Position numbers and translations under genes: made by a program. The notes under the pieces were generated by a model. It was not told the origin of the DNA. It did no database searches and was given only the letters and a program-made list of their open reading frames with translations. A DNA stretch of 63,799 bases, filler included, from Candidatus Fermentibacterota bacterium (GTDB lineage: Bacteria > JAFGKV01): the NCBI GenBank assembly GCA_016928395.1. It is 5 parts of 5 records of this genome, joined end to end, with 100 filler letters (N's around TTAATTAATTAA, not from the genome) between each part and the next. Parts side by side here need not be neighbours in the genome. Positions count along the whole stretch, not along the records: positions 1 to 28,537 come from JAFGKV010000154.1; 4 more parts are not named here. The stretch is one strand, 5' to 3'. Of this stretch, positions 897-59,441 are shown one piece after another; positions within the stretch are counted from its first letter, which is position 1, and each line of letters opens with the position of its first letter.

Positions 897-2102
897 ATGA
901 CCGTTGAGAAAGCAGGGGATGTACGTCATACGATGCCAGCTTCCGCGTATCTGTCGCCATGCCAGGCTGCCTCGCCGCCCTATTTCTGGGTGGATTCGAC
1001 AGACGACTTCGCGACCATGGCGGCCGCGCTGGCGCACGCTCCGCGAATGGCCATCGACACTGAAGCCGATAGTCTCTATCACTATGTGCAGAAAGTCTGC
1101 CTGCTCCAAATCTCCACCGACTCCACAACCTACATAGTGGACCCCTTGGCAGTCACTGATCTCTCGCTCTTGCAGCCGATGATGGCTGATTCTGCCGTGG
1201 AGAAGGTGTTTCACGCCGCCGGATCAGACATCGCGGGCCTGCGCCGAGATCATGCCCTGAGCTTTTCCGGAGTGTTTGACACGCACATAGCCGCACAGCT
1301 CGTGGGGCTTCCTGCAGTAGGTCTGAGTGCACTCCTGGAACAAGAATTCGACATTGTGCACTCAAAACGTCGACAGCGCGATGACTGGTCGCAACGTCCG
1401 CTGAACCCGGAGCAACTAAGGTACGCCGCCATGGATACCCACCATCTCCTCGCCCTGCGGGATGCCCTTGAACAGCGGCTTCAGGCAAAGGGAAGACTCA
1501 CCTGGGCTCAGGAGGAGTTCGACATAATCGCCTTCTCTCGCGAGGAGGAGCGAGTCTTCGATCCCCAATGCTTCCGCAGAATCAAAGGCTCACGGGATTT
1601 GGCGCCCCTCCAGCAGGCCATGCTCCAGGCCCTTTTCGTGCTTCGTGACCGGCTGGCACGGCAGATGGACGTGCCGCCGTTCAGGGTCATGAGCGATTGG
1701 GTTCTTGTGGATCTCGTCCGGCATCCGCCCCGCGCGACCACTGAGCTTGCCGGCCGACGAGGCGTTTCCCCCCGCCTGGCGAGGAATCACGGGGCTTTGG
1801 TGCTGCAGGTCTTGAAGCATGCGAGCCACGGCAACCCTGTGAGCCCCGCGCCGCGACCCAAGGGTACCCGCCCACCGGTGGAGGCGCGGATACGACTGGA
1901 GAATCTCAAGAGGTGGCGAGACGGCAAAGCCGCCGAGCTAAAGCTCCCTGTGGGCATCGTGTTCCCGAATAGCCAGCTTGAAGCCATGTCCCTGGCGGCG
2001 CCCGCTGACAGAGCAGCCTTGGGCGCCATTCCCGGCATGCGGCGGTGGCGAGTTCGCGAATTCGGCGAGGAGGCTCTGCGCGCGCTCCGGCTCTCATCGT
2101 AG
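897..2102 (+). CDS. rnd: Ribonuclease D (DEDDy 3'-5' exonuclease with HRDC domains)
   Basis: AIDTEAD, KVFHAA, FDT, DWSQRPL and YAAMD motifs, followed by two HRDC-like regions. Confidence 0.9.
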   Translation: MTVEKAGDVRHTMPASAYLSPCQAASPPYFWVDSTDDFATMAAALAHAPRMAIDTEADSLYHYVQKVCLLQISTDSTTYIVDPLAVTDLSLLQPMMADSAVEKVFHAAGSDIAGLRRDHALSFSGVFDTHIAAQLVGLPAVGLSALLEQEFDIVHSKRRQRDDWSQRPLNPEQLRYAAMDTHHLLALRDALEQRLQAKGRLTWAQEEFDIIAFSREEERVFDPQCFRRIKGSRDLAPLQQAMLQALFVLRDRLARQMDVPPFRVMSDWVLVDLVRHPPRATTELAGRRGVSPRLARNHGALVLQVLKHASHGNPVSPAPRPKGTRPPVEARIRLENLKRWRDGKAAELKLPVGIVFPNSQLEAMSLAAPADRAALGAIPGMRRWRVREFGEEALRALRLSS

Positions 2103-2165
2103 AGGAGTGCGGCCCTGATCCCTCCTCTCTCCGGTGTTCCGCGGTCAGCGAACATGCGCAGAAGA

Positions 2166-3671
2166 CTATCGGATGACCACTACCTGGCGAGACATGGCCG
2201 AATCGTCACCTACCGGACGAATCATGTAGGTGCCAGGGGGCACTGGTCTGCCGCGACCGTCCCGGCAATCCCAGGTCAGAAGTGAGGATCCCGCCAGGGT
2301 TCTGATTCGCCGCCCCACCAAATCGAACACACCGACTTCCAGGAGCTCTGAGCTCGGATTCAGAATCCCAAGCCGCACCATGGTTCGAGCCGGATTCGGA
2401 TACGCGGGGCCCAAGACCATTGTGCCCGGCAGGGGTTCACCGATACCGGTCGTCTCCGGACCCCAGCAGGGGTAGCGGATGTCTGCAGGGCCGTAGAGGG
2501 GGGTCGTCTGGTAGTCGGAGAGCCTGATCGTGACCAGATTGGTCTCATCCCACGCGTCAGAAGGGTACATTGAGAGGCAGATGTACTGCATGGTCGGATC
2601 CCATCCGCCGAACTCAGCATACCAACCCTCATCGAATGCGACTCCACCGGAGAACGCCCCTTCGGACGTGTAGAACAAGACTCCCTCGACGGTCTGCCCC
2701 TGTTGGTTCTGCACCATGGTGATGTAGCCGAACAGCGAACCATCGGGCGACCAATGTAGTCTCTTGGCGCTGAGGTACTGGTCTTCCACGATCTGACGCA
2801 TGTCCGATCCGTCAGGATTGCACCGCCAGATGCCTTCCAGACTCTCATCGCCCCACCATACCGACGTCATGAGCAGCACGGGGCCGCCGGAGGGGTGGGC
2901 TGCCAGCGCGGTGAACTTCGATACTCCTTGGGGAACGGGCACCAGGTCGACCAGTCCAGTGCCGTCAGGGCCTATTCGGTTGGCTCCACCCGCATTGTCT
3001 ATGAACAACAACTCCTCGCCCGAGGGCATCCAGGCTACGTCGCCCACGCCCTGCTGGTTGTCCCAGTCCCAGGTGAGAGTGACGTCGCACGTGCTGGTCA
3101 CGCCCGGGTACACCGTCACCGGCATGAAGCCGAAGTCCTCGGCATCATACAGGATGACGGGGTCATAGGCGGTCACATACTGGTCACCCACGGGCACGTC
3201 ATCGAAACGGAATCGCCCCCATGTGTCGGCAGTGACGCTGTTGGGTTTGGAGCTGATATAGACCCATGCGCCCGATTTGGCATATCCATCCTCCCAGACA
3301 GTTCCCTCCACCGATCCGGTGGGTGAACCAGGGGGAAAGCTCCCCGGCGTCTTGTGGGTAACAGAATATCGCTGCTGGCCTTGGCGATCCGTGATCCAGA
3401 GGTTGGATCGCCAGGGCGTGTTCATGAGATCTTCCTCGCTGGAGAAGGCGATCCACTGCCCATTGGGGGAAAATGACGGCGCGCGCAACACACCGAAGGT
3501 GTGGCCCGTGAGATCGACCAAAGGCAACGGCGTGGGGGATGGAGGATCGAGGCGGTAGAGAATGTCCTCGCTGTCCTGCACACGCACGGTGAAACCGATA
3601 CTGGCGGCATGGAGTGAATGAACCGCACAGGCCATTCCTGCCACGACGGAGACAAACCCGGATACGCGCAT
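2166..3671 (-). CDS. Secreted TolB-like propeller protein with a carboxypeptidase-regulatory-like domain and a C-terminal FlgD-Ig/T9SS-type domain
   Basis: Strong RBS (GAAGGAGG) before ATG 3671 and a signal peptide; PSFSPNG and WSPDG repeats; C-terminus YPNP...VFDLVGRRIR...WDCRDGRGRPVPPGTY. Confidence 0.75.
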   Translation of the reverse strand: MRVSGFVSVVAGMACAVHSLHAASIGFTVRVQDSEDILYRLDPPSPTPLPLVDLTGHTFGVLRAPSFSPNGQWIAFSSEEDLMNTPWRSNLWITDRQGQQRYSVTHKTPGSFPPGSPTGSVEGTVWEDGYAKSGAWVYISSKPNSVTADTWGRFRFDDVPVGDQYVTAYDPVILYDAEDFGFMPVTVYPGVTSTCDVTLTWDWDNQQGVGDVAWMPSGEELLFIDNAGGANRIGPDGTGLVDLVPVPQGVSKFTALAAHPSGGPVLLMTSVWWGDESLEGIWRCNPDGSDMRQIVEDQYLSAKRLHWSPDGSLFGYITMVQNQQGQTVEGVLFYTSEGAFSGGVAFDEGWYAEFGGWDPTMQYICLSMYPSDAWDETNLVTIRLSDYQTTPLYGPADIRYPCWGPETTGIGEPLPGTMVLGPAYPNPARTMVRLGILNPSSELLEVGVFDLVGRRIRTLAGSSLLTWDCRDGRGRPVPPGTYMIRPVGDDSAMSRQVVVIR

Positions 3672-3785
3672 GCTTGCTCCTCCTTCGGATGGGGCTACAT
3701 CTAAATCAGCACGGAGGTCAACCCGAAGTCTCTGTCTGTCCCCCAAAGTAGAACGACTCCCCCGCACGCGCAACCGCCATTCAGT

Positions 3786-4901
3786 TCACGGCAGGAACTC
3801 CAGGGGCAGACGATCAGCGATGGCCAAACCCGCAAGAGTCACAGTGACGCGATCCTGACCGCACACAAGGAATCCTCCTGCCTGCAGACGTTCCAACGTC
3901 ACCTCCCACCCCGCGTATCGGGTGAGTGCCGACAAGGGTACACCTCTCGCCGTTCGCATGCCCAGCATGACCCGCTCCAGCGCAAGCTGCTCGTCAGTCA
4001 GAGTTTCCGACTCCTCCATGGGTACAGCGTTCCGGCTGAGACGCGCGACATACTCTTCCACGGACCGCACGTTCCATGACCGGGTTCGTCCATCAAAGGA
4101 GTGGGCAGCTGGCCCGAGACCGCAGTAGGGGGCGTGGTGCCAGTAGAGCGCGTTGTGGCGCGCCCGGAAGCCGGGCAGGGCGAAGTTCGAGACTTCGTAG
4201 TGCTCGTACCCATGATCCGTAAGCAGCCGCGAGGTAAAGAGGAAGAAGTCGTACTCCTTCGCCTCGGGAGACCGAATCAGACTCGGCGGACGGCGGCTGA
4301 GCGGTGTGTTCGGCTCGATGGTGAGCTGATAGCAGGAGAGGTGCGCCGGCCGCCATCTGAGGGCTTCGTCCAGGGTGGTGCGCCACCGCTCGCGGCGTTG
4401 GCCGCGGAAGCCGTACATGAGATCAATGCCGATATTCGTAAAGCCGGCATCCTTTGCCAAATGGATTGCCGCACGCGCTTGGGATGCGGTGTGGCGCCTA
4501 CCCAAGAAGCGCAGCTCATCATCCCGGAACGACTGCACCCCGATGCTGAGCCGATTGGCGCCATTTTTTCGCAGAGTCTCCAACAAGGGCGTGGTGATAT
4601 CGTCTGGATTGGCCTCCACCGTTACTTCGGCATCTTTGGTCAGCGGCCACGGGGTATCGGGACCACGCAGCAATCGTGCCAGCAGCTCCGGAGGGAGCAC
4701 GGTTGGGGTTCCGCCACCCACATAGAGGGTCGTGAAGGTTTGGCCGGCGCGCAGTCGAGCCTCTACGGCCAGGCTTTCAGCATACGCGTCGATGGGCGAG
4801 AGATCGGTCTGGGAGCAGAACCCGCAGTAGGCACACTTGGTGCGACAAAACGGGACGTGCACGTACAGCCCGGCGTCAGGCGGCACTTCCCGCGCCTTCA
4901 T
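3786..4901 (-). CDS. hemW: Radical SAM heme chaperone HemW (HemN family)
   Basis: LYVHVPFCRTKCAYCGF, GGGTPT, YEVSNFA and HNALYW; lies directly downstream of lepA with an ATGA overlap. Confidence 0.9.
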   Translation of the reverse strand: MKAREVPPDAGLYVHVPFCRTKCAYCGFCSQTDLSPIDAYAESLAVEARLRAGQTFTTLYVGGGTPTVLPPELLARLLRGPDTPWPLTKDAEVTVEANPDDITTPLLETLRKNGANRLSIGVQSFRDDELRFLGRRHTASQARAAIHLAKDAGFTNIGIDLMYGFRGQRRERWRTTLDEALRWRPAHLSCYQLTIEPNTPLSRRPPSLIRSPEAKEYDFFLFTSRLLTDHGYEHYEVSNFALPGFRARHNALYWHHAPYCGLGPAAHSFDGRTRSWNVRSVEEYVARLSRNAVPMEESETLTDEQLALERVMLGMRTARGVPLSALTRYAGWEVTLERLQAGGFLVCGQDRVTVTLAGLAIADRLPLEFLP

Positions 4902-6694
4902 TCCTCCTTCGTCTTCAGCACTGATACGAAGGCACTCTGGGGAATGACAACATCCCCGACCATCTTCATCCGCAGCTTGCCACGCTTCTGTTTCTCCAGG
5001 AGCTTGCGTTTACGGGTTACGTCGCCTCCGTAGCACTTGGCTGTCACGTCCTTACGGAAGGGCTTGATGGTCGATCGGGCGATGATCTTGCCTCCAATAG
5101 CGCCCTGGATGGCGATGCGGAACTGGTGGCGTGGGATCTCCTCTGCCAATCGCTCACAGGCATGAAGCGCCCGCTCCCGGGCCTGGCTCTCATGCACGAT
5201 AAGCGAGAGTGCATCCACCCGCTCGCCATTGACCAGTATGTCAACCTTGACGACGCGCCCTGGACGGTAGTCGGTGAGATCATAGTCAAACGAGCCGTAC
5301 CCCTGCGTGACGCTCTTGAGCCGGTCGTAGAAGTCGAACAAGACCTCGGCCAGCGGCATGTCGCAGGCAAGCTCTATGCGCCCCGGCGTGGGATAGTGAA
5401 ACGACGTGCCCTCGGCGCGCCGCTCCAGGCACAGCTTCATGACGACGCCCAAGTACCGTTCAGGCATGAGGATAGTAGCGTGGATATAGGGTTCGTGGGT
5501 GGTAGCGACATCCATGGGATCTGGAAAGTGAGCCGGGTTGTCTACCACCAGAGCCGTACCATCCTTCAGGGTGAAATGATACTCCACGCTGGGAACCGTC
5601 ATGATGATACTCTGATCGAACTCCCGCTCGAGCCGCTCCTGCACGATCTCCAGATGCAGAAGCCCTAGAAAGCCGCAGCGGAAACCCTGACCCAAGGCAG
5701 CCGAGGAGTCCTTCTCGAAGATCAACGAGGCATCGTTGAGTGCATACTTTTCCATGGCATCGACCAAAGGTCGGTAGTCATCAGAGGACACCGGATAGAT
5801 GGACGAAAAGACCACGGGTTTGGCCACCTTGAAACCGTGAAGCGCCGTGGAGGCAGGGCATTCATCGTGAGTGATAGTGTCGCCGATGCGGGTGTCACTC
5901 ACGGTTTTGATATTGGCGATGAGATAGCCGACTTCGCCGGCTGACAGCGCCGGCCGCTTCACCCTTCGAAGTTGGAAGATGCCGACCTCCTCAACCTTGA
6001 ATGTGCGGCCATTGGACATGGTCATTATGGTATCGCCCGGACGGACTGCCCCGTCTATCACGCGGATGCTGACAACAGTACCCCGGTAGGCATCGTAACT
6101 CGCATCGAATATGAGCGCACGAAGGGGCTTGCTGGGCTCTCCCCGCGGAGGGGGAACTCGTCCTACGATAGCCTCGCGTATCGCGTCAATGCCAACTCCT
6201 TCCTTCGCCGAACACAGAATGGCCTCCGAGGGATCGATCCCCAGTTCGACCCGCATCTCCTCTTTGGTACCGGCGATGTCCGCCGCGGCCAGGTCGATCT
6301 TGTTGATGACCGGTATGATGGCCAAGTCATGCTCCATGGCGGCATAGAGATTGGCCAGAGTCTGAGCCTGGACTCCTTGCGCCGCATCAACCAGGAGGAG
6401 AACACCTTCGCAGGAGGCCAGCGCCCGGGAGACTTCATAGGAGAAATCAACGTGACCGGGCGTATCGATGAGGTTGAGCACGTAGTCGTGGCCGTCAGGC
6501 CCCCTATAGGGCAGCGTGCATGTCTGGCTCTTGATCGTAATCCCGCGCTCACGCTCGATATCCATGGAATCGAGAATCTGCTCGCGAAAGTCTCGATCCG
6601 CCACGAGGCCGGCGTGTTGAATGAGGCGGTCGGCCAGCGTTGACTTGCCGTGATCGATATGGGCGATGATACTGAAGTTGCGGATATCGGCCAT
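4898..6694 (-). CDS. lepA: Elongation factor 4 (LepA)
   Basis: IRNFSIIAHIDHGKSTLADR, DTPGH, NKID and KCYGGDVTRKRKLLEKQK; start placed at MADIRNF (6694). Confidence 0.98.
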   Translation of the reverse strand: MADIRNFSIIAHIDHGKSTLADRLIQHAGLVADRDFREQILDSMDIERERGITIKSQTCTLPYRGPDGHDYVLNLIDTPGHVDFSYEVSRALASCEGVLLLVDAAQGVQAQTLANLYAAMEHDLAIIPVINKIDLAAADIAGTKEEMRVELGIDPSEAILCSAKEGVGIDAIREAIVGRVPPPRGEPSKPLRALIFDASYDAYRGTVVSIRVIDGAVRPGDTIMTMSNGRTFKVEEVGIFQLRRVKRPALSAGEVGYLIANIKTVSDTRIGDTITHDECPASTALHGFKVAKPVVFSSIYPVSSDDYRPLVDAMEKYALNDASLIFEKDSSAALGQGFRCGFLGLLHLEIVQERLEREFDQSIIMTVPSVEYHFTLKDGTALVVDNPAHFPDPMDVATTHEPYIHATILMPERYLGVVMKLCLERRAEGTSFHYPTPGRIELACDMPLAEVLFDFYDRLKSVTQGYGSFDYDLTDYRPGRVVKVDILVNGERVDALSLIVHESQARERALHACERLAEEIPRHQFRIAIQGAIGGKIIARSTIKPFRKDVTAKCYGGDVTRKRKLLEKQKRGKLRMKMVGDVVIPQSAFVSVLKTKEE

Positions 6695-6800
6695 GGAGTA
6701 GATGGTTACCCTATTGATGGAGGAGACACGCGCCACCGAGATGGTCCGCGCCGTGTGGTGAATGCCGACCTGGATGTCAGGGAAGGTACGGACGTCGCGG

Positions 6801-8036
6801 TCACACGACAATGGGCGTGACGTGCTTGAACGCGCAAAACGCCAGTGCGCGCTCCCGCACATCACCATGGAGGACTATCTGATGGTTGCCCGGAGCATGC
6901 TCGAGCCATGACTCAACGCTGCCGGCCAACTCCACCTGTGCCATGACGTGGCCGGCCTCGATCCCGGAGGCGACAATCCGGCCCGGCGCGATAAGCAGAC
7001 TCCCGAATCCCGCGCCGAAACGGAGAATGGTCACGGGGCCTTCCCGAAGGCTGCCTTGTAAGGCGGCACCCCGGCGGACATCCGGCTGCATCGCCACCTT
7101 CAATGACATGGGATCATGCAGCATGGTACACGGTGCCGTGCAGTGCGAGAGAGTGAGGGCGTTCGCCGACCGGTCTATCCGCAGGGCGTCAGCAGTCCAA
7201 CTGGGGCCCGAGTTGAGGGCTGAAGCCAGGACCATGGTGAACACCGCCTCCAGGTCACCCTCGCAGCCGGCAACGATGCCCTCATCGTTGAGGAGGCTGA
7301 TGCCCAGGCAGGGAGCGATCCCGCTGTCGAGCAGGTCGTAGCAACGAACCGTCAATGCGGTGAGCTGGTGCGCTTCAATCATGTCTCGCATGGCAAGGTA
7401 GAGCCGCGCCGAATCAAGGAAGTCGGCATCGGTGGTCTCAATGACTGCGGCCTGGGACGCGAGCGAGTGAACCACGGCGTGCGCCTGGGAGGCGGAAACG
7501 AGATCATAGCGTTCCAGCAGCTTTTCCAGCTTGAAGTTGGCGATGCGTGTCTTGAATTCCCTGAAGGAGTGAATCCCATGGGACGTCAGTAGCCATGGGG
7601 CGGGCGCACCAAAACAGCCGATGACTCCCTCGTCGATGCGCGCGATGGCCGCGGCGATGTGGGCGAACCCATCAATGACCGACACCGCCTCGTCGCCGCC
7701 CAGCGGCGCATATGCGACCTTCAGGGGAAATCGAGTCTTCAGGGCGGCATAGGCTTCCAGAGTCGCGGCCAGTGAGTTATTGTCGGGATTCGCCCACAAG
7801 AGAACTGGCTTGGCAGTCTGGAAGACAATTTGGTTGATTATGGCCTCGGTCCCTCCGCTGGCCACCAGGATGACCGCGCCGTCGATGGCATCCCTTCGGG
7901 CGGAGACCGCCCGTTCCGCCTGGAGGATGTTGCTTACGTAGTCGATGACACCAAGCCCTCCTGCGGCCGCGGCAACCCTCTGCCGTAGGGTCTCCATATC
8001 CTCAAGCTCTGAGAAGACTGCGAAGAAGCCTAGCAT
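6801..8036 (-). CDS. L-fucose/L-arabinose isomerase-like protein
   Basis: SGGTE, NSLAA, PWL, VRC, AGCEGD, HCT and GNHQ motifs; RBS GAGGTGG before ATG 8036. Confidence 0.7.
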   Translation of the reverse strand: MLGFFAVFSELEDMETLRQRVAAAAGGLGVIDYVSNILQAERAVSARRDAIDGAVILVASGGTEAIINQIVFQTAKPVLLWANPDNNSLAATLEAYAALKTRFPLKVAYAPLGGDEAVSVIDGFAHIAAAIARIDEGVIGCFGAPAPWLLTSHGIHSFREFKTRIANFKLEKLLERYDLVSASQAHAVVHSLASQAAVIETTDADFLDSARLYLAMRDMIEAHQLTALTVRCYDLLDSGIAPCLGISLLNDEGIVAGCEGDLEAVFTMVLASALNSGPSWTADALRIDRSANALTLSHCTAPCTMLHDPMSLKVAMQPDVRRGAALQGSLREGPVTILRFGAGFGSLLIAPGRIVASGIEAGHVMAQVELAGSVESWLEHAPGNHQIVLHGDVRERALAFCAFKHVTPIVV

Positions 8037-8468
8037 GGGTACCACCTCATTGTGAAGCGCCGCCCCTGTCTCTCCCGAAGAACGTCGTATGTGCGCACCG
8101 TAGCACACCACGCCGGAAAATGACGATGCGGAGGAGGATCTATTCAGTATCAATCGCTCAATACCGTATCAAGAAGTCCACTTGTCAACGATCATCACTG
8201 TATTTCGGTTGTTGTGGATCGATTCTGTTTATCCGAAGATCCGGCAGACACGGAGAACCCGTCTTCTTGCGCATAGACCGACTTTTGGCATTCTAACGAA
8301 ACGCAGATAACCTACATCAAGATAGAGACGAGATCCATGGAGGTATCGTACGGGGGATGCATTCACACGGTGATAGCGCGGGTGCCTACGGTGCTCTGTC
8401 GTGACTCACAATGCCCGCTATCGTGGAGTCGTCTGCAAGCCCTCGGCCCACTCAAGACTCGAAAGGTA

Positions 8469-8496
8469 TTGACATAGGTAACAGGCATGGTAAACT
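8469..8496 (+). promoter_or_regulatory. sigma70-type promoter of the ATP-grasp/GNAT/KamA operon
   Basis: TTGACA (8469-8474), 16-nt spacer, TAAACT (8491-8496) with an extended -10 TG. Confidence 0.7.
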
Positions 8497-8502
8497 AGAG
8501 GC

Positions 8503-8614
8503 GATTAAAGAGGAGTTGACGGCGTTGCGAGAGCCGCTGCTGCCCCACCGGGCGAAGAGTCTCCGCGGCCCCTCAGACTGCCGTCCTGCTCAAGAAGACG
8601 GAGACTCTTCGGTG
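8503..8614 (+). promoter_or_regulatory. Structured 5' leader with a perfect 13-bp stem sequestering the RBS (candidate cis-regulatory RNA)
   Basis: CGAAGAGTCTCCG (8553-8565) is the exact reverse complement of CGGAGACTCTTCG (8599-8611), which contains GGAG and abuts the GTG start; additional nested stems are present. Confidence 0.55.
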
Positions 8615-9697
8615 CGCCTTGCCCTTGCGTATAATGCCAAACCAACTGCCAGAAGCGCCATCGAGGCTGTACACCCTGAAACGGTCCTCGACGAGGAGGA
8701 GGAACCTCCGCCGCTGACTGCGGGCGTCGGTAGCAACGACGACGCCTACGCCGAATGGGATGATGCGCCCACAATTCTGGCGCTGGCGGGGGCTCTTGCC
8801 AATCAATTCGATGTTTCACTGGTTGAAGCTGATGCACGCTTCCCTTCCCGCGTACAACGCCTCAAGCCGGACATTGTGTTCAATGTTGCCGAAGGAATGG
8901 TCGGTCCGGCCCGGGAGGCCCACGTGCCCGCAATCCTGGAGATGCTGCGCATCCCGTATAGCGGGTCAGACTCTCTCACCCTGGCGGTGTGCCTCCACAA
9001 GGCGTGGGCAAATGTTATCCTCGCTGCCAACGGTGTGCCCACACCGCGCCATCGAGTGATTGAAGGCATTACTGATCTTGATAGCCCGTGGGAGATATTG
9101 TTTCCGATTATCCTCAAGCCGCTGCACGAAGGATCCAGCAAGGGCATTCGAGATGATCAGGTGGTGGGCTCCCTCTTCGATTTGAGGGTGAGGGCCGCGC
9201 GCCTTCTCCGGGATTACCATCAGCCCGTTCTGGCCGAGCAGTTCCTTCAGGGCCGCGAGTTCACCGTGGCAATTTTAGGGAATCCTCCTGACGTGCGAGT
9301 ACTGCCGCCGGTGGAACTGCGGTTCGATGCCTTTCCGCCGGGCACAACCCCGATCTACTCCTGGGAGGCGAAGTGGTTATGGGATCGACCCGATTCTCCG
9401 CTTGACGTGTTCCAATGCCCCGCCGGCCTGTCTTTTGCCCAGCAGGCGGAGATCGAACAAGTCTGTCAGGCTACGGCGAGGATTCTGCGCATCAGGGATT
9501 GGGCGCGAATCGACGTTCGCATGGATGCGGCCGGGGTGGTACACGTCATGGAAGTCAATCCCCTCCCGGGGATGCTGCCCGATCCCGACGCTCATTCCTG
9601 CTATCCCAAAGCCGCCCGAGCCGCCGGGATGACTTATGACGACGTGGTCTTGGCTGTGGTCGACGCGGCGTGCCGACGATGGGGGCTTCGCTCATGA
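8612..9697 (+). CDS. D-Ala-D-Ala ligase-like ATP-grasp enzyme 1
   Basis: DIVFNVAEG, IPYSGSD, KPLHEGSSKGI, GREFTV, YSWEAKW and RID...EVNPLPG; true start probably GTG 8612 (MRLALAYN), downstream of the promoter. Confidence 0.88.
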   Translation: MRLALAYNAKPTARSAIEAVHPETVLDEEEEPPPLTAGVGSNDDAYAEWDDAPTILALAGALANQFDVSLVEADARFPSRVQRLKPDIVFNVAEGMVGPAREAHVPAILEMLRIPYSGSDSLTLAVCLHKAWANVILAANGVPTPRHRVIEGITDLDSPWEILFPIILKPLHEGSSKGIRDDQVVGSLFDLRVRAARLLRDYHQPVLAEQFLQGREFTVAILGNPPDVRVLPPVELRFDAFPPGTTPIYSWEAKWLWDRPDSPLDVFQCPAGLSFAQQAEIEQVCQATARILRIRDWARIDVRMDAAGVVHVMEVNPLPGMLPDPDAHSCYPKAARAAGMTYDDVVLAVVDAACRRWGLRS

Positions 9698-10698
9698 GAC
9701 CGCAGGTAGTCCTGCTCTTCAATGAACCAGTGAATACCGAGGAACCGTCTGAGGTAGGAGTCATCGGTGAAGCCGAGGATATTGTCTCAGCACTGGAATC
9801 CAAAGGACACGCCGTGGAATCAAGGCCAGTCTCGCGCCAGACGCTGCTTCCGACCCTGAGTGAGTTGGAAGACCGCCGGGAATCAGTGGTCGTGTTCAAC
9901 CTGTGCGAAGGACTCAACGGTCATTCCCACCACGAGCCGCTGCTGGCGGGTCTCTTGGAGCTTCACAGGCTCCGCTTCACGGGGAGTCCCTCATCGACGC
10001 TCTCGTGGGCACTGGATAAGCGCGTTGCCAAGGCCATTCTTGGCTTCGCGGGAGTCCGCACTCCGGGAGCACAGGCGTTCTGCACCGCAGGCTCCATGGA
10101 CGAGATAAAGGAGTTCGCTCTGCCGGCCATCGTGAAGCCTGTCCGAGAAGACGGCAGCCTGGGCATCACCGCCGACTCGGTGGTGCATACCGCAGATGAA
10201 CTTCATGCCCGCATTCGCTGGGTCCTGGAGACCTATCGCCAGCCAGCTTTGGTGGAAGGATATCTGACGGGCCGGGAATTCAACATGTCTATCCTGGGCG
10301 AAGGAGACGACGCCAGACTTCTGCCGGTGGAGGAGATCCTGTTTGAGGGGTATTCGCCGGGAGAACCGCGCCTGCTCTCCTACGACGCCAAGTGGCGCGT
10401 GGGAAGCCATGATGATGTCCGTACCATCCCGAAATGCCCCGCCGCAGTGGATGGCAACCTGCGTGATGCGATGGAATCGCTGGCACTCACCACGTACCAA
10501 GCTTTCGGATGCAGGGACTATGCCCGAATCGACATCAGACTCGACGGCGGTGGAACACCCCATGTGCTGGATGTGAACCCAAACCCCGATATCTCACGGG
10601 TGGCCGGCATGGCCCTGGCGGTCACACAATCGGGCATGTCCTATGAAGAGTTTGTGGACAGTGTCGTGGAGGCAGCATGGAACCGAACGCCGTACTAG
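9694..10698 (+). CDS. D-Ala-D-Ala ligase-like ATP-grasp enzyme 2
   Basis: VFNLCEG, FTGS, KPVREDGSLGI, GREFN, SYDAKW and RIDIR...DVNPNPD; ATGA overlap with the previous gene. Confidence 0.88.
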   Translation: MRPQVVLLFNEPVNTEEPSEVGVIGEAEDIVSALESKGHAVESRPVSRQTLLPTLSELEDRRESVVVFNLCEGLNGHSHHEPLLAGLLELHRLRFTGSPSSTLSWALDKRVAKAILGFAGVRTPGAQAFCTAGSMDEIKEFALPAIVKPVREDGSLGITADSVVHTADELHARIRWVLETYRQPALVEGYLTGREFNMSILGEGDDARLLPVEEILFEGYSPGEPRLLSYDAKWRVGSHDDVRTIPKCPAAVDGNLRDAMESLALTTYQAFGCRDYARIDIRLDGGGTPHVLDVNPNPDISRVAGMALAVTQSGMSYEEFVDSVVEAAWNRTPY

Positions 10699-11168
10699 GC
10701 CCTTTGCACTCTGACCTTGTCGAGGACGTCGTGGCGATGGTAAGGGACACGGGCGTGTTCCGTCCCTGCGAGGTAGACGTGGCCGAGGAACTGCTCGAAG
10801 CGGCTGCCCTGGAGGGAGACGAGTCGGGTTACCTCGTACGGGTTGCTCTGGTGCAGGACAAGGTGGCGGGGTATGCATGCTGGGGCGCCACGCCGTGCAC
10901 GGAAGGCACCTTCGACCTGTACTGGATCGCCGTATCACCCGCCTATGGTCGACGCGGCGTCGCCGGGGCGCTCCTAAATGAGGTCGAGCAGGATGTAGTC
11001 TCACGCGGAGGCCGGCTGCTCATCGCCGAGACATCGAGCACCGAGCCGTACGAGGCTGCGCGTTCGTTTTACGTTCGAAGGGGCTTCCGGGAGGAGGCCC
11101 GGATTCCCGACTTCTATAAGCCGGGAGATGCGAAAGTGGTTTTCGTCAAAACTCTCTTGCAAAGCTAG
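10677..11168 (+). CDS. GNAT family N-acetyltransferase
   Basis: DLYWIAVSPAYGRRGVAG acetyl-CoA motif A, ETSS, FYVRRGF and IPDFY. Confidence 0.9.
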   Translation: MEPNAVLGPLHSDLVEDVVAMVRDTGVFRPCEVDVAEELLEAAALEGDESGYLVRVALVQDKVAGYACWGATPCTEGTFDLYWIAVSPAYGRRGVAGALLNEVEQDVVSRGGRLLIAETSSTEPYEAARSFYVRRGFREEARIPDFYKPGDAKVVFVKTLLQS

Positions 11169-11193
11169 AGAGTCAGGAGGGAGTGGAGGAACG

Positions 11194-12315
11194 ATGGAAC
11201 TCTGGCAGGAGTTCCTTGCCTCGGCGATTCGTACGCCCGCACAGCTCAGGCGATACTTCCCTGAGATCGATGTGGCGGCATTGGAGCGGGTTGCCGAGGT
11301 GTATCCTATGTGTGTCACCCCGTACTATCTGGGCCTTGTCCAGCGGATTGACGATCCCATAGCGAGACAGTGTATACCTGATCCCGTCGAGCTGGATTCG
11401 TTCGGTCTGGTGGCTGACCCGCTGGCGGAAGAGAGCATGAGCCCCGTGCCCTGCGTCGTGCATCGGTACCCGGATCGCGCGCTGTTTTTGGTCTCATCCC
11501 AGTGCGCCATGTACTGCCGGTTTTGCACGAGAAAGCGAAAGGTGGGCACGGACTGGGCCATCACCGATGAGTTGCGTCGCGAGGGCCTCGCGTACATTGC
11601 GCGAACCCCCGAAATCCGTGATGTGGTGGTCTCCGGGGGGGATCCGCTCATGCTGTCGGACGGCCTCATCGAAGGCGTTCTGAGCGGTCTACGGCGAATC
11701 CCCCACGTGGAGGTCATCCGCCTTGGCACTCGGACGCCCTGCACCCTGCCCCAGCGGATCACGCCTCGGCTAGTGCGCATGTTGCGGAAGTACCATCCGC
11801 TCTACGTGAACACGCATTTCGAGCACCCCAGGGAACTCACACCGGATGCGGTTCGGGCATTGACGCGTCTTGCGGATGCCGGCATTCCTCTGGGGAATCA
11901 GTCCGTGCTCCTGCGCGGCGTGAACGATGACCCCGCCGTGTTCCTGGAACTCAACAGAAGACTGCTGAGCGCGCGGGTGAAGCCCTACTACATGTTCCAA
12001 GCCGATCTCGTAGACGGGACCGCCCATTTCTGCACCCCGATTGAGACCGGCCTTGATGTGATACGCGGTCTCCGAGGCCACACGTCGGGGATGGCTGTTC
12101 CCCATTTCGTCATCGACTCGCCGGGAGGCGGCGGCAAGATTCCGATCCTCCCCCAGGAGTACGTCCGTCGGGAGGGGCGGCAACTCATTCTTCGGAACTA
12201 CCGTGGGCAGATCCACCTCTACTCGGATCGCACCGCAGAGCCGAACCCGTGTGAGGAGATCGCCGGGATGCCTGACCTGATCGAAGCCTTTGAGCCCTTG
12301 GCGGCCATAGGCTAG
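11194..12315 (+). CDS. kamA: KamA-family radical SAM/PLP aminomutase (lysine 2,3-aminomutase-like)
   Basis: HRYPDR, CAMYCRFC, SGGDPL, NQSVLL, YYMFQAD and VIDSPGGGGKIP (PLP lysine); RBS GGAGGA before ATG 11194. Confidence 0.9.
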   Translation: MELWQEFLASAIRTPAQLRRYFPEIDVAALERVAEVYPMCVTPYYLGLVQRIDDPIARQCIPDPVELDSFGLVADPLAEESMSPVPCVVHRYPDRALFLVSSQCAMYCRFCTRKRKVGTDWAITDELRREGLAYIARTPEIRDVVVSGGDPLMLSDGLIEGVLSGLRRIPHVEVIRLGTRTPCTLPQRITPRLVRMLRKYHPLYVNTHFEHPRELTPDAVRALTRLADAGIPLGNQSVLLRGVNDDPAVFLELNRRLLSARVKPYYMFQADLVDGTAHFCTPIETGLDVIRGLRGHTSGMAVPHFVIDSPGGGGKIPILPQEYVRREGRQLILRNYRGQIHLYSDRTAEPNPCEEIAGMPDLIEAFEPLAAIG

Positions 12316-27682: not shown

Positions 27683-28537
27683 ATGATCGCCGACATCACT
27701 GCCAAGAGCATGTTGTCATCGGTTCGCCAGCCGGATCCGTGGTTTGGCCTGCGCTACTCTATGAATCTCTACCGTGGCTGCCAGCACCAGTGCATCTATT
27801 GTGACTCCCGGAGCGCATGCTACGGCATCGAGAACTTTAGCGACATCGTAGTCAAGACCAACGCCATCGAGCTGCTCCGTCGGGAATTGCCTCGCAAGCG
27901 CGTGAAGGGCACCATCGGCACCGGCTCCATGCACGACCCCTACATGCCTCTGGAAGCCGAGCGCCGGCTCACCCGCGGCGCGTTGGAGGTCATCGCCCAG
28001 CACCGGTTTTCAGTTCACGTCATCACCAAGAGTGACTTGGTTCTGCGGGACACTGATGTGCTCGGCTCCATCGGGTCAGTCTACGCTGCCGTCAGTTTCA
28101 GCATCACGACAGCCGACGACTCGCTGGCTGCCAAAATCGAGCCCAACGCGCCGCCTCCGTCGCGCCGCCTCCGCGCCATGCAGACACTCGCGGGCCTGGG
28201 AGTGCTGACCGGCGTGGTTATGATGCCCCTACTGCCCTTCCTGGAGGACACCGAGGCCAATGTCCGGGCTATTGTAACCCGGGCGCATGAGGCCGGCGCG
28301 GCCTACATCGTTCCAGCCTTCGGCATGACGCTGCGGGACCGGCAACGGGACTACTACTACGCGCAGCTCGACCGCCTGTTCCCAGGGCTGAGAAAGCGCT
28401 ATGAACGGCGATTCGGCGAGCGCTACTCTTGTGGCGCCGCCAATGCCCGGCGTCTAAAGGAGTGCCTCAGCAACCGCTGCGCCGACGTGGGCCTGGTCAC
28501 GCGCATGCCGGTCTACTCCCCGCACACAGCAGAGCAG
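27683..28537 (+). CDS. Radical SAM protein, SplB/Rv2578c-like; runs into the gap
   Basis: NLYRGCQHQCIYCD, DPY.P.E, ITKS and EP..PPP..RL. Confidence 0.88.
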
Positions 28538-28637
28538 NNNNNNNNNNNNNNNNNNNNNNNNNNNNNNNNNNNNNNNNNNNNTTAATTAATTAANNNNNNN
28601 NNNNNNNNNNNNNNNNNNNNNNNNNNNNNNNNNNNNN
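28538..28637. other. Artificial contig spacer
   Basis: N-run, TTAATTAATTAA (stops in all six frames), N-run; 100 nt in total. Confidence 0.98.
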
Positions 28638-28822
28638 CGGAGGAATCCTGTGCCCTTGCCGTGGACGATCCTGACCTCGAGGATACCCCGCTCTCGGCAC
28701 AAGGCAAGGTAGTCCTGCACAAGGCTCTTCACTTCGCGGGGCGCGAATGCGTGAAGGTCAAGTTCGTCCGTAATGGGCATTTCATACGCATCGTCCGCAG
28801 AGAGCATTTCATCCTCGGACAT
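28638..28822 (-). CDS. Smr-domain protein (3' truncated)
   Basis: ELDLH and VRIVHGKGTG. Confidence 0.9.
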
Positions 28823-49910: not shown

Positions 49911-50010
49911 NNNNNNNNNNNNNNNNNNNNNNNNNNNNNNNNNNNNNNNNNNNNTTAATTAATTAANNNNNNNNNNNNNNNNNNNNNNNNNNNNNNNNNN
50001 NNNNNNNNNN
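49911..50010. other. Artificial contig spacer
   Basis: N-TTAATTAATTAA-N. Confidence 0.98.
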
Positions 50011-53545: not shown

Positions 53546-53645
53546 NNNNNNNNNNNNNNNNNNNNNNNNNNNNNNNNNNNNNNNNNNNNTTAATTAATTA
53601 ANNNNNNNNNNNNNNNNNNNNNNNNNNNNNNNNNNNNNNNNNNNN
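53546..53645. other. Artificial contig spacer
   Basis: N-TTAATTAATTAA-N. Confidence 0.98.
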
Positions 53646-59166: not shown

Positions 59167-59189
59167 CACGCAACCCCCGTCGGGCCTGA

Positions 59190-59289
59190 NNNNNNNNNNN
59201 NNNNNNNNNNNNNNNNNNNNNNNNNNNNNNNNNTTAATTAATTAANNNNNNNNNNNNNNNNNNNNNNNNNNNNNNNNNNNNNNNNNNNN
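59190..59289. other. Artificial contig spacer
   Basis: N-TTAATTAATTAA-N. Confidence 0.98.
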
Positions 59290-59441
59290 ACAGCACTTCC
59301 CCGGGGGTGTGCGCCCAGGATGTCCTCCGCCTTGGACACAGTCCTGGAGGCTACCGTAACCGTCACACCTTCGCAGTTCAGAAGGTAGCGGACCAGTGGT
59401 CGTGAGACGAGCCCGGCTCCCAGTACCAGTACATTCTTCAT
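59290..59441 (-). CDS. Saccharopine dehydrogenase, N-terminal fragment
   Basis: KNVLVLGAGLVSRPLVRYL...VTVASRT..KA Rossmann start; directly downstream of the LKR gene. Confidence 0.85.

Follow-up and report, generated by a model that had tools for sequence, protein, structure and literature searches.

The window, the whole 63.8-kb stretch of DNA analyzed here, carries on its plus strand an operon of four genes preceded by a short 5′ untranslated leader. Gene 1 (8612–9697) encodes a Ddl-like ATP-grasp ligase (Pfam Dala_Dala_lig_C, 3.6e-28) that begins with GTG at 8612, and its N-terminal sequence VRLALAYNAKP... is read as MRLALAYNAKP.... Genes 2 to 4 follow on the same strand (together 9670–12315) and encode a second Ddl-like ATP-grasp ligase (9670–10698), a GNAT acetyltransferase (10677–11168), and a KamA-family radical-SAM 2,3-aminomutase (ORF 11128–12315). 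The aminomutase scores 432 bits against the NCBIfam AblA model, under that model’s cut-off of 525 bits. The same four-gene order (ATP-grasp, ATP-grasp, GNAT, aminomutase) is found in three related loci, L001, L036 and L037, to which the operon comparison is limited, the remaining contigs being too short. The initial annotation of this DNA had described an aminomutase operon; an aminomutase is indeed present, but as the fourth gene, and the gene that the leader directly precedes is that of the Ddl-like ligase.

Upstream of gene 1 lies a sigma-70-type promoter (8469–8496, plus strand), with a −35 box TTGACA at 8469–8474, a 16-nt spacer, and a TG-extended −10 box TAAACT at 8491–8496. A promoter scan recovered this TTGACA-16-TAAACT arrangement, already annotated at the same position, with 10 of 12 matches and the TG extension. 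Judged from the position of the promoter, the transcription start (TSS) would lie near 8503, giving an untranslated leader of ~109 nt (8503–8611). We found no terminator-like site (a GC-rich stem with a U-tract) between 8000 and 8900, and the sequence right after arm C, the 3′ arm of the leader repeat described below, is GGUGCGCC. Transcription attenuation was rejected for this leader, which has no terminator.

Sequence comparison places the translation start of gene 1 at GTG 8612, where the initial annotation had put it. Homologs align with the GTG-8612 protein from residue 1, and homologs from many phyla start MR(I/V/L).... Two of the related loci, L037 and L039, have in-frame stops five codons upstream of the start, and no ATG, GTG or TTG occurs in the last 112 nt of the L039 and L040 leaders or in the last 80 nt of the L038 leader. 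These in-frame stops and start-less leaders exclude an upstream start as the main mode of initiation. Of the upstream ATG codons in the window, ATG 8487 is out of frame and reaches a stop after three codons. ATG 8411 is in frame, and 8411–9697 is a single open frame whose conserved portion runs from GTG 8612 on, but this codon precedes the whole conserved promoter, −35 box included, and the surrounding DNA shows no conservation in L001. The reading of the leader as coding sequence, with an N-terminal extension initiated at ATG 8411 or at TTG 8516/8525, has in its favor that the main frame stays open as far back as 8411 in the window and 1107 in L001. Against it stand the stops in L037 and L039, the common N terminus of the homologs, the position of ATG 8411, and a 4-nt indel, owing to which the conserved 5′ block of the leader changes frame between the window and L001; we regard it as extremely improbable.

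We scanned the whole window for inverted repeats (seed 11, arms no more than 100 nt apart), setting aside the artificial N/TTAATTAATTAA contig linkers. The sole natural perfect inverted repeat of at least 13 bp lies in the leader: CGAAGAGTCTCCG at 8553–8565 and CGGAGACTCTTCG at 8599–8611 are 100% complementary and 33 nt apart, just as first reported for this RBS. We refer to the 11-nt cores of this repeat as arm B (GAAGAGUCUCC, 8554–8564, plus strand; 13-nt form 8553–8565) and arm C (GGAGACUCUUC, 8600–8610, plus strand; 13-nt form 8599–8611). Arm C holds the SD sequence GGAG (8600–8603), 8 nt upstream of GTG 8612, and the entire spacer to the GTG, making arm B the anti-SD strand. Pairing of the two arms defines what we call the OFF fold, in which the SD is sequestered and the post-B stretch (8565–8591, plus strand) forms an apical hairpin, in the window CGGC 8566–8569 with GCCG 8580–8583.

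The same post-B stretch can instead supply the 3′ strand of a second fold, ALT, by pairing with the 5′ segment of the leader. In the window ALT consists of P0 (8510–8515/8586–8591), P1 (8518–8523/8580–8585), P1b (8524–8526/8576–8578), P1c (8529–8531/8572–8574) and P2 (8533–8537/8565–8569). The 5′ strands, all on the plus strand, are GAGGAG for P0 (8510–8515), GACGGC and GUU for P1 and P1b (8518–8526), and GAG and GCCGC for P1c and P2 (8529–8537). The P0 strand GAGGAG resembles an SD, a character not kept in relatives. These helices enclose a small hairpin, P3 (GCCC-CACC-GGGC, 8542–8553, plus strand; pairs 8542–8545/8550–8553), which lies immediately 5′ of arm B, and they leave arm B as an 11-nt single strand in the junction between P2 and P3. 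The nested helices P1, P2 and P3 proposed in the initial annotation are all present at the positions assigned to them, and all three form jointly in two best-fold predictions, one with arm B held single-stranded and one for RNA that ends before arm C. A further pairing proposed there, CCGUC with GACGG (8581–8585/8597–8601), is part of the window’s MFE structure but is not kept in relatives, L035 having CCAUC and L037 having CCCUC with GUCGG; for this lack of conservation we reject it. The folding energy of the whole leader is ordinary for its composition in the window (z −0.9 to −1.2), and z ranges from −0.7 to −1.7 for five leaders including the window’s, with −2.2 for L040 and −2.9 for L038.

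Two protein-guided scans for homologous ATP-grasp genes, the first with one genome per species, gave 34 and 58 loci, 92 in total. A sequence-profile search found the leader in seven of the 92 (L001, L035, L036, L037, L038, L039 and L040), in each case directly upstream of the orthologous ATP-grasp gene. As L035 and L036 are identical over the leader, the sample comprises six distinct sequences from about three lineages. A covariance model searched against 38 sources returned the same seven loci and the window, and nothing else convincing. The closest named relative is L001, a MAG labelled Candidatus Eisenbacteria, whose gene 1 protein is 68–69% identical to that of the window. These two agree base for base in the −35 box, the −10 box, a 57-nt block spanning arms B and C, and a further 17-nt block in the 5′ half of the leader, with the 4-nt indel between the blocks. 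Conservation of the leader between the window and L001 far exceeds that of the coding sequence. The leader occurs once in the window and once in the genome of L001 (G001), and gave no match in the second genome of G001’s two-genome phylum set.

In all seven sequences, the window’s included, arm B reads GARGRGUCUCC followed by C(G/C)CGGC, the B–C spacer measures 32–37 nt, and arm C reads GGAGACUCU(U/C)C and ends 1 nt ahead of the start codon. In the six leaders for which upstream DNA is available, a promoter of the form TTGACN-16/17-TAAACT/TAAAAT/TATCAT is always the same distance away from arm B. The sequences fall into two subclades. Subclade 1 (window, L001, L035/L036 and L037) also has the 5′ half of the leader and the first half of the spacer in common; in subclade 2 (L038, L039 and L040) both of these regions are of different sequence. 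P3 recurs in subclade 1 with a G-C, G.U or A-U closing pair and a loop of 4–6 nt, and other small hairpins take its position in L038, L039 and L040.

Beyond these loci, an exact-pattern scan of metagenome contigs gave no match to a pattern with 21 specified spacer bases, a spacer later found to be variable. Among public sequencing runs, three DNA runs and no RNA run were listed, and run contigs gave no coverage of 8350–8689, adding neither leader variants nor transcripts. Three matches to the arm pattern in viral contigs, a number near chance by rough estimate, were not accepted as family members; they score weakly with the covariance model (E 0.0005–0.01, over the arms only), and one of them, L102, precedes an unrelated 415-aa ORF. 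Other clades of the gene 1 ligase have leaders unrelated to that of the window. In the outgroup L041 (57% identical), the SD is also hidden, within a local 8-bp hairpin, and a 5′ element, GCGCAAUCUCC, is complementary at 10 of 11 positions to L041’s own GGAGACUGCGC. The L041 hairpin hints that SD masking at gene 1 predates the two-state leader motif.

The OFF helix is found in every member: arms B and C pair over 11–13 bp in all seven sequences, burying the SD. Eight of its 11 core pairs are invariant, and the other three change on one side only, to G.U; there are no double changes, and a single A.C break occurs in L040. Folding predictions give this helix a probability of 0.89 for the window, 0.78–1.0 for L035, L037, L038 and L039, 0.33 for L001 and 0.00 for L040. 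The domain from arm B to arm C has a folding energy of −23.3 kcal/mol in the window and −20.1 to −26.7 kcal/mol in the relatives.

A competing fold that uses the neighbors of the anti-SD strand is found in all six full-length leaders, so that both the RBS-locking helix and the nested fold of the initial annotation recur in relatives. In each of the six, the ALT duplex begins at the first nucleotide after arm B, and ALT is the MFE structure of the RNA truncated before arm C. The sequences of the helices differ considerably. The outer strands AGUGUC/GGCACU in L037 and GAGGAG/CUGCUC in the window both pair; L039 pairs CGG-A-GCGCCG with CGGCGC-C-CCG; and L040 forms a 20-bp helix of wholly different outer sequence. 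The P1 pair 8520/8583, C-G in the window, corresponds to U.G in L001, U-A in L035 and a U.C mismatch in L037. The G-to-A change in L035 keeps P1 and breaks the apical hairpin of the OFF state. The P1c and P2 pairs show no variation among the four subclade-1 sequences.

To gauge the ALT duplex we compared its energy with that of dinucleotide shuffles, 1000 for each strand, and in all six full-length leaders this energy was reached by only 2–27 shuffles (it beats 97–99.8% of them). With the 5′ and the 3′ strand shuffled, respectively, the counts were 21 and 25 for the window, 11 and 6 for L001, 7 and 15 for L035, 11 and 27 for L037, 19 and 2 for L039, and 8 and 4 for L040. As to column-wise covariation, one of 38 ALT pairs in a four-sequence MAFFT alignment shows a double change, a level that 316 of 500 shuffles reach and that is not significant. 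ALT pairing holds in 94.7% of alignment cells vs 38–48% in slid controls, for a structure derived from the same four sequences. In L037, L039 and L040, where whole helices have been rewritten, the changes do not lend themselves to column-wise alignment. A covariance model of subclade-1 ALT misses L039 and scores L040 at E 0.17, and subclade 2 is not alignable to it, so ALT in subclade 2 is a result of per-sequence folding only. Since the spacer and the 5′ half cannot be aligned between the subclades, no shared ligand pocket is evident beyond arm B. The initial annotation had staked its proposal on conservation or covariation in homologous leaders: conservation is borne out by the leader in seven of 92 loci, but covariation amounts to one double change in 38 ALT pairs and none in the B/C helix.

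The two folds compete for the same nucleotides. Of the spacer nucleotides, ALT takes up 28–36 out of 35–36 in subclade-1 leaders, 31 out of 32 in L039 and 29 out of 35 in L040, and a linker of just 0–7 nt separates its outer helix from arm C. With a linker this short and a helix of more than 20 bp, arm C cannot reach arm B unless ALT opens. Of the two arrangements originally offered, pseudoknotted or mutually exclusive, the short linkers thus favor mutually exclusive OFF and ALT folds over a single pseudoknot. Predicted OFF and ALT energies are −40.6 and −39.3 kcal/mol in the window, −38.8 and −40.5 in L001, −35.0 and −36.2 in L035, and −40.1 and −38.4 in L037, a gap of no more than 2 kcal/mol in all four subclade-1 leaders. 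The balance is lopsided in L039 (−45.1 vs −33.9 kcal/mol) and in L040 (−43.9 vs −48.9 kcal/mol). Direct-path estimates of the refolding barrier are 25–39 kcal/mol.

We compared the leader with known RNA families. Lysine, SAM, SAH, guanidine, c-di-AMP and Na+-I/DUF1646 riboswitches are all families in Rfam. In a cmscan of 7900–9000 of the window against Rfam 15, with E up to 10, the only match was a chance snoRNA hit inside the coding sequence, at 11.3 bits against a threshold of 45. Rfam likewise gave no match at E up to 1 in L035, L038, L039 and L040 or in 2600–3200 of L037; in 53 other loci with homologous ATP-grasp genes, searched at gathering thresholds, it gave only two tRNAs, both in L033, and no riboswitch. 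As no Rfam family matches, the description of the leader as a new motif, outside the known riboswitches, stands. Our full-text literature search found no description of the leader motif and nothing joining aminomutase, ATP-grasp, β-lysine and acetyltransferase, nothing joining riboswitch candidate, ATP-grasp and motif, and nothing joining acetyl-β-lysine and ATP-grasp. The leader is a new motif of the SD-sequestering two-state type, with a narrow distribution.

Since six related uncultured bacteria share this design, the leader is probably a new cis-regulatory translational switch. More specifically, we would put it at slightly better than even that the ~109-nt 5′ UTR acts in cis as a bistable RNA controlling translation initiation at gene 1, as the predicted folds suggest. 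In this model, pairing of arm B (8554–8564) with arm C (8600–8610) would, in the OFF state, bury the GGAG of the SD together with all of the spacer before the GTG. In the ALT state, 8510–8537 would zip with 8565–8591 into the long interrupted helix P0-P1-P2, with arm B held in the junction; the SD would then be free or in a weak local hairpin, and translation would be ON. ALT should form first on the nascent RNA, because it is complete before arm C is transcribed, and the choice of fold would be made during or soon after transcription. A signal, perhaps a small ligand or ion bound at the conserved junction, perhaps a protein, would shift the balance between ALT and OFF. Analogy with ablA operons suggests Na+/K+, c-di-AMP, lysine, β-lysine or the pathway product as candidate signals.

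Arms B and C are near-invariant while the outer helices have been rewritten, which indicates that arm B is constrained as a sequence beyond its pairing. This constraint fits the junction strand of a putative binding core, and arm C, as the complement of arm B plus the SD, would be conserved as a consequence. That the leader is a ligand-binding riboswitch in the strict sense is nevertheless a tentative suggestion, in our estimate less likely than not. Equally speculative is a new riboswitch class in which GARGRGUCUCC doubles as part of a ligand core and as anti-SD, possibly sensing an ion or metabolite of an undescribed β-amino-acid peptide or osmolyte pathway.

The simplest competing explanation is a static translational damper or mRNA-stabilizing hairpin, in which only the B/C helix matters, nothing is sensed, and ALT simply follows from the GC richness of the sequence. 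In five of seven leaders B/C is the prevailing predicted fold, the whole-leader energies are ordinary, and the ALT fold is neither alignable across subclades nor formally significant in its covariation, all of which this explanation would accommodate. It does not readily account for an ALT duplex that outperforms nearly all shuffles in six of six leaders at a constant register, for strands that are rewritten in L037, L039 and L040 with pairing retained, or for the L035 change that spares P1 at the expense of the OFF apical hairpin. Moreover, a static hairpin needs no invariant arms, no conserved leader length and no conserved 5′ half. We favor a switch over a plain hairpin on account of the sequence constraint on arm B, of the conservation seen in leader length, promoter spacing and competing-helix register, and of precedent, since ablA operons are known riboswitch targets, as in Dehalobacter (PMC9337991). 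A static hairpin seems unlikely to us, though it is far from negligible. A second possibility invokes the leader’s own coding potential: a uORF (MALREPH...) in L001, L035 and L037 would be translated, its ribosomes would melt the B/C helix, and gene 1 would be turned on. L001 and L035 have GAGGAGGAG and then ATG, three of four substitution events between them are synonymous in the uORF frame by hand count, and the short ORF of L037 ends at a TGA overlapping arm B. Yet the window has ACG in place of the ATG, and that base covaries with its P1 partner (C-G, U.G, U-A). The length of the uORF differs (43 codons in L001 and L035, 13 in L037), as does its frame, which in the window is joined to the main frame by the 4-nt indel; L037 lacks an SD at this place, the start-less leaders of L038, L039 and L040 leave no place for a uORF, and the putative SD and ATG are themselves paired in ALT. 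A start codon, an SD and a conserved frame are not found in all members, and we consider leader-peptide coupling improbable.

RNA thermometers of the ROSE and fourU type are built from short, mismatched, marginally stable helices. Temperature was among the signals first suggested for this leader, and a thermometer or a purely ionic melting of the SD helix could draw on the sequestration of the SD in a hairpin and on the resemblance of the operon to salt-responsive, ablAB-like osmolyte pathways (PMC9337991). But the SD helix is neither short, imperfect nor marginally stable: the window has a perfect duplex of 13 bp, the family has one of 11–13 bp, the domain that contains it folds at −20 to −27 kcal/mol (37 °C), and the conserved competing fold would be left unexplained, which makes temperature sensing unlikely and this explanation as a whole very improbable. 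Near-invariance of both arms, in place of covariation, is also what would be seen if the feature acted at the DNA level, as two inverted copies of an 11-bp operator at which a repressor forms a roadblock, and each arm does contain a short palindrome, GAGNCTC. Counted from the putative TSS, however, the two sites would lie at about +50 and +97, away from the promoter; in seven of seven sequences the extent of arm C matches the SD plus spacer exactly; and three of the four changes in the arms replace A by G on the transcribed sense strand and so yield G.U pairs. The competing RNA helix is significant, and the arm motif is found nowhere else in the window or in genome G001. We give an operator very little credence, and of these explanations a bistable RNA switch acting on translation is the one we carry forward.

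Several known systems resemble this proposed switch in part. The E. coli thiM TPP riboswitch is translational and sequesters its SD through alternative pairing. Like switches of this type, the leader has two 5′ UTR folds predicted to be exclusive and no terminator, and a single strand, here arm B, belongs either to the upstream domain or to the SD helix. Unlike them, it shows no conserved pocket common to both subclades apart from arm B, has no Rfam match, and is known from six distinct representatives, all before one operon. The 5′ UTR of the MS2 maturation-protein gene and the hok mRNA are kinetically trapped leaders. The likeness here is that the SD would be closed by long-distance pairing at equilibrium, that the nascent fold would allow a window of translation, and that the estimated barriers are large (25–39 kcal/mol). 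The subclade-1 folds, in contrast, are near-isoenergetic, neither being clearly final, and the leader belongs to a chromosomal biosynthetic operon and not to a phage or toxin gene. The lysine riboswitch (L-box) is a five-helix junction; our leader shares its tie to lysine-related metabolism but is ~109 nt long, with one long interrupted helix, one hairpin and no Rfam match.

The closest parallel in gene content comes from Dehalobacter, where a lysine-2,3-aminomutase gene (ablA) is under the control of tandem Na+-I and c-di-AMP riboswitches (PMC9337991). The Na+-I (DUF1646 motif)/c-di-AMP pair and our leader are alike in that RNA would control an operon with a KamA/AblA-type aminomutase, and both operons are probably tied to osmolyte or β-amino-acid synthesis. 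The Dehalobacter riboswitches act through intrinsic terminators and have consensus folds of their own, whereas the leader has no Rfam match and acts, if at all, on translation.

The narrow distribution of the leader limits its broader impact. If the switch is real, an uncultured lineage would contribute a new family of cis-regulatory RNA, of a compact design in which one invariant strand serves both the junction and an 11-bp anti-SD helix. With its shared strand, near-isoenergetic folds and high barrier, the leader would offer a clean system for testing how a fold is chosen co-transcriptionally. A real switch would also flag a conserved four-gene operon (ATP-grasp, ATP-grasp, GNAT and 2,3-aminomutase) with an undescribed product, and the identity of the signal would help to place the role of that product in the organism, for example in osmoadaptation.

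The proposed two-state leader that would hide the Shine-Dalgarno (SD) sequence of the first ligase gene is located in the first piece of the window. The N runs around TTAATTAATTAA at window positions 28537-28638, 49911-50010, 53546-53645 and 59186-59293 appear to be artificial six-frame-stop linkers between several contigs, so the window as a whole probably represents a concatenated MAG.

Upstream of the homologous ligase gene in the outgroup locus L041, whose protein is 57% identical, the leader (965-1102) places the SD within a local 8-bp hairpin. This leader also carries a 5′ element, GCGCAAUCUCC, that is complementary at 10 of 11 positions to GGAGACUGCGC at the SD. In a soil clade of homologous ligase genes (L056, L065, L079 and L092), the region upstream of the ligase gene contains an insert of ~65 nt (~2930-3000) as compared to loci L054, L055, L058 and L072. 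The 3′ end of the insert is a GC-rich hairpin followed by a T-run, resembling a terminator, and lies immediately 5′ of AGGAGG and the ATG. The insert may act as an attenuator or riboswitch-like leader in its own right; an Rfam search with the leaders of these four loci returned no match. In a 4.5-kb viral contig recovered by our arm-pattern scan (L102), a hairpin at the contig end (1498-1563, minus strand) lies immediately 5′ of a 415-aa ORF, and its 3′ arm, GGAGACUCUU, contains an SD. We rejected this hairpin as a member of the two-state leader family, considering it an unrelated, chance match to the pattern.

LepA lies upstream of the operon in divergent orientation in both the window and the related locus L037 (536-2341, minus strand). 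In the window, where this upstream region spans 4898-8153 (minus strand), LepA and the operon are separated by a gene encoding a 450-aa protein with weak similarity to sugar isomerases (AraA_central, sulfoquinovose-isomerase-like). The operon itself, comprising two Ddl-like ATP-grasp ligases, a GNAT protein and a KamA-family 2,3-aminomutase, is conserved in the window (8612-12315), in L001 from a genome labelled Candidatus Eisenbacteria (1266-4972), and in the related loci L036 (1034-4740) and L037 (3001-6677). Counted from its first ATG, the window aminomutase ORF (11128-12315) encodes 395 aa and shares 41 nt with the GNAT gene. Since its homologs are 371-374 aa long, translation probably starts at a codon after this first ATG. 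The operon's aminomutase scores below the NCBIfam cut-offs of the AblA, glutamate-2,3-aminomutase and arginine-2,3-aminomutase models. The product of the four-gene operon may be an acetylated β-amino-acid peptide or osmolyte.
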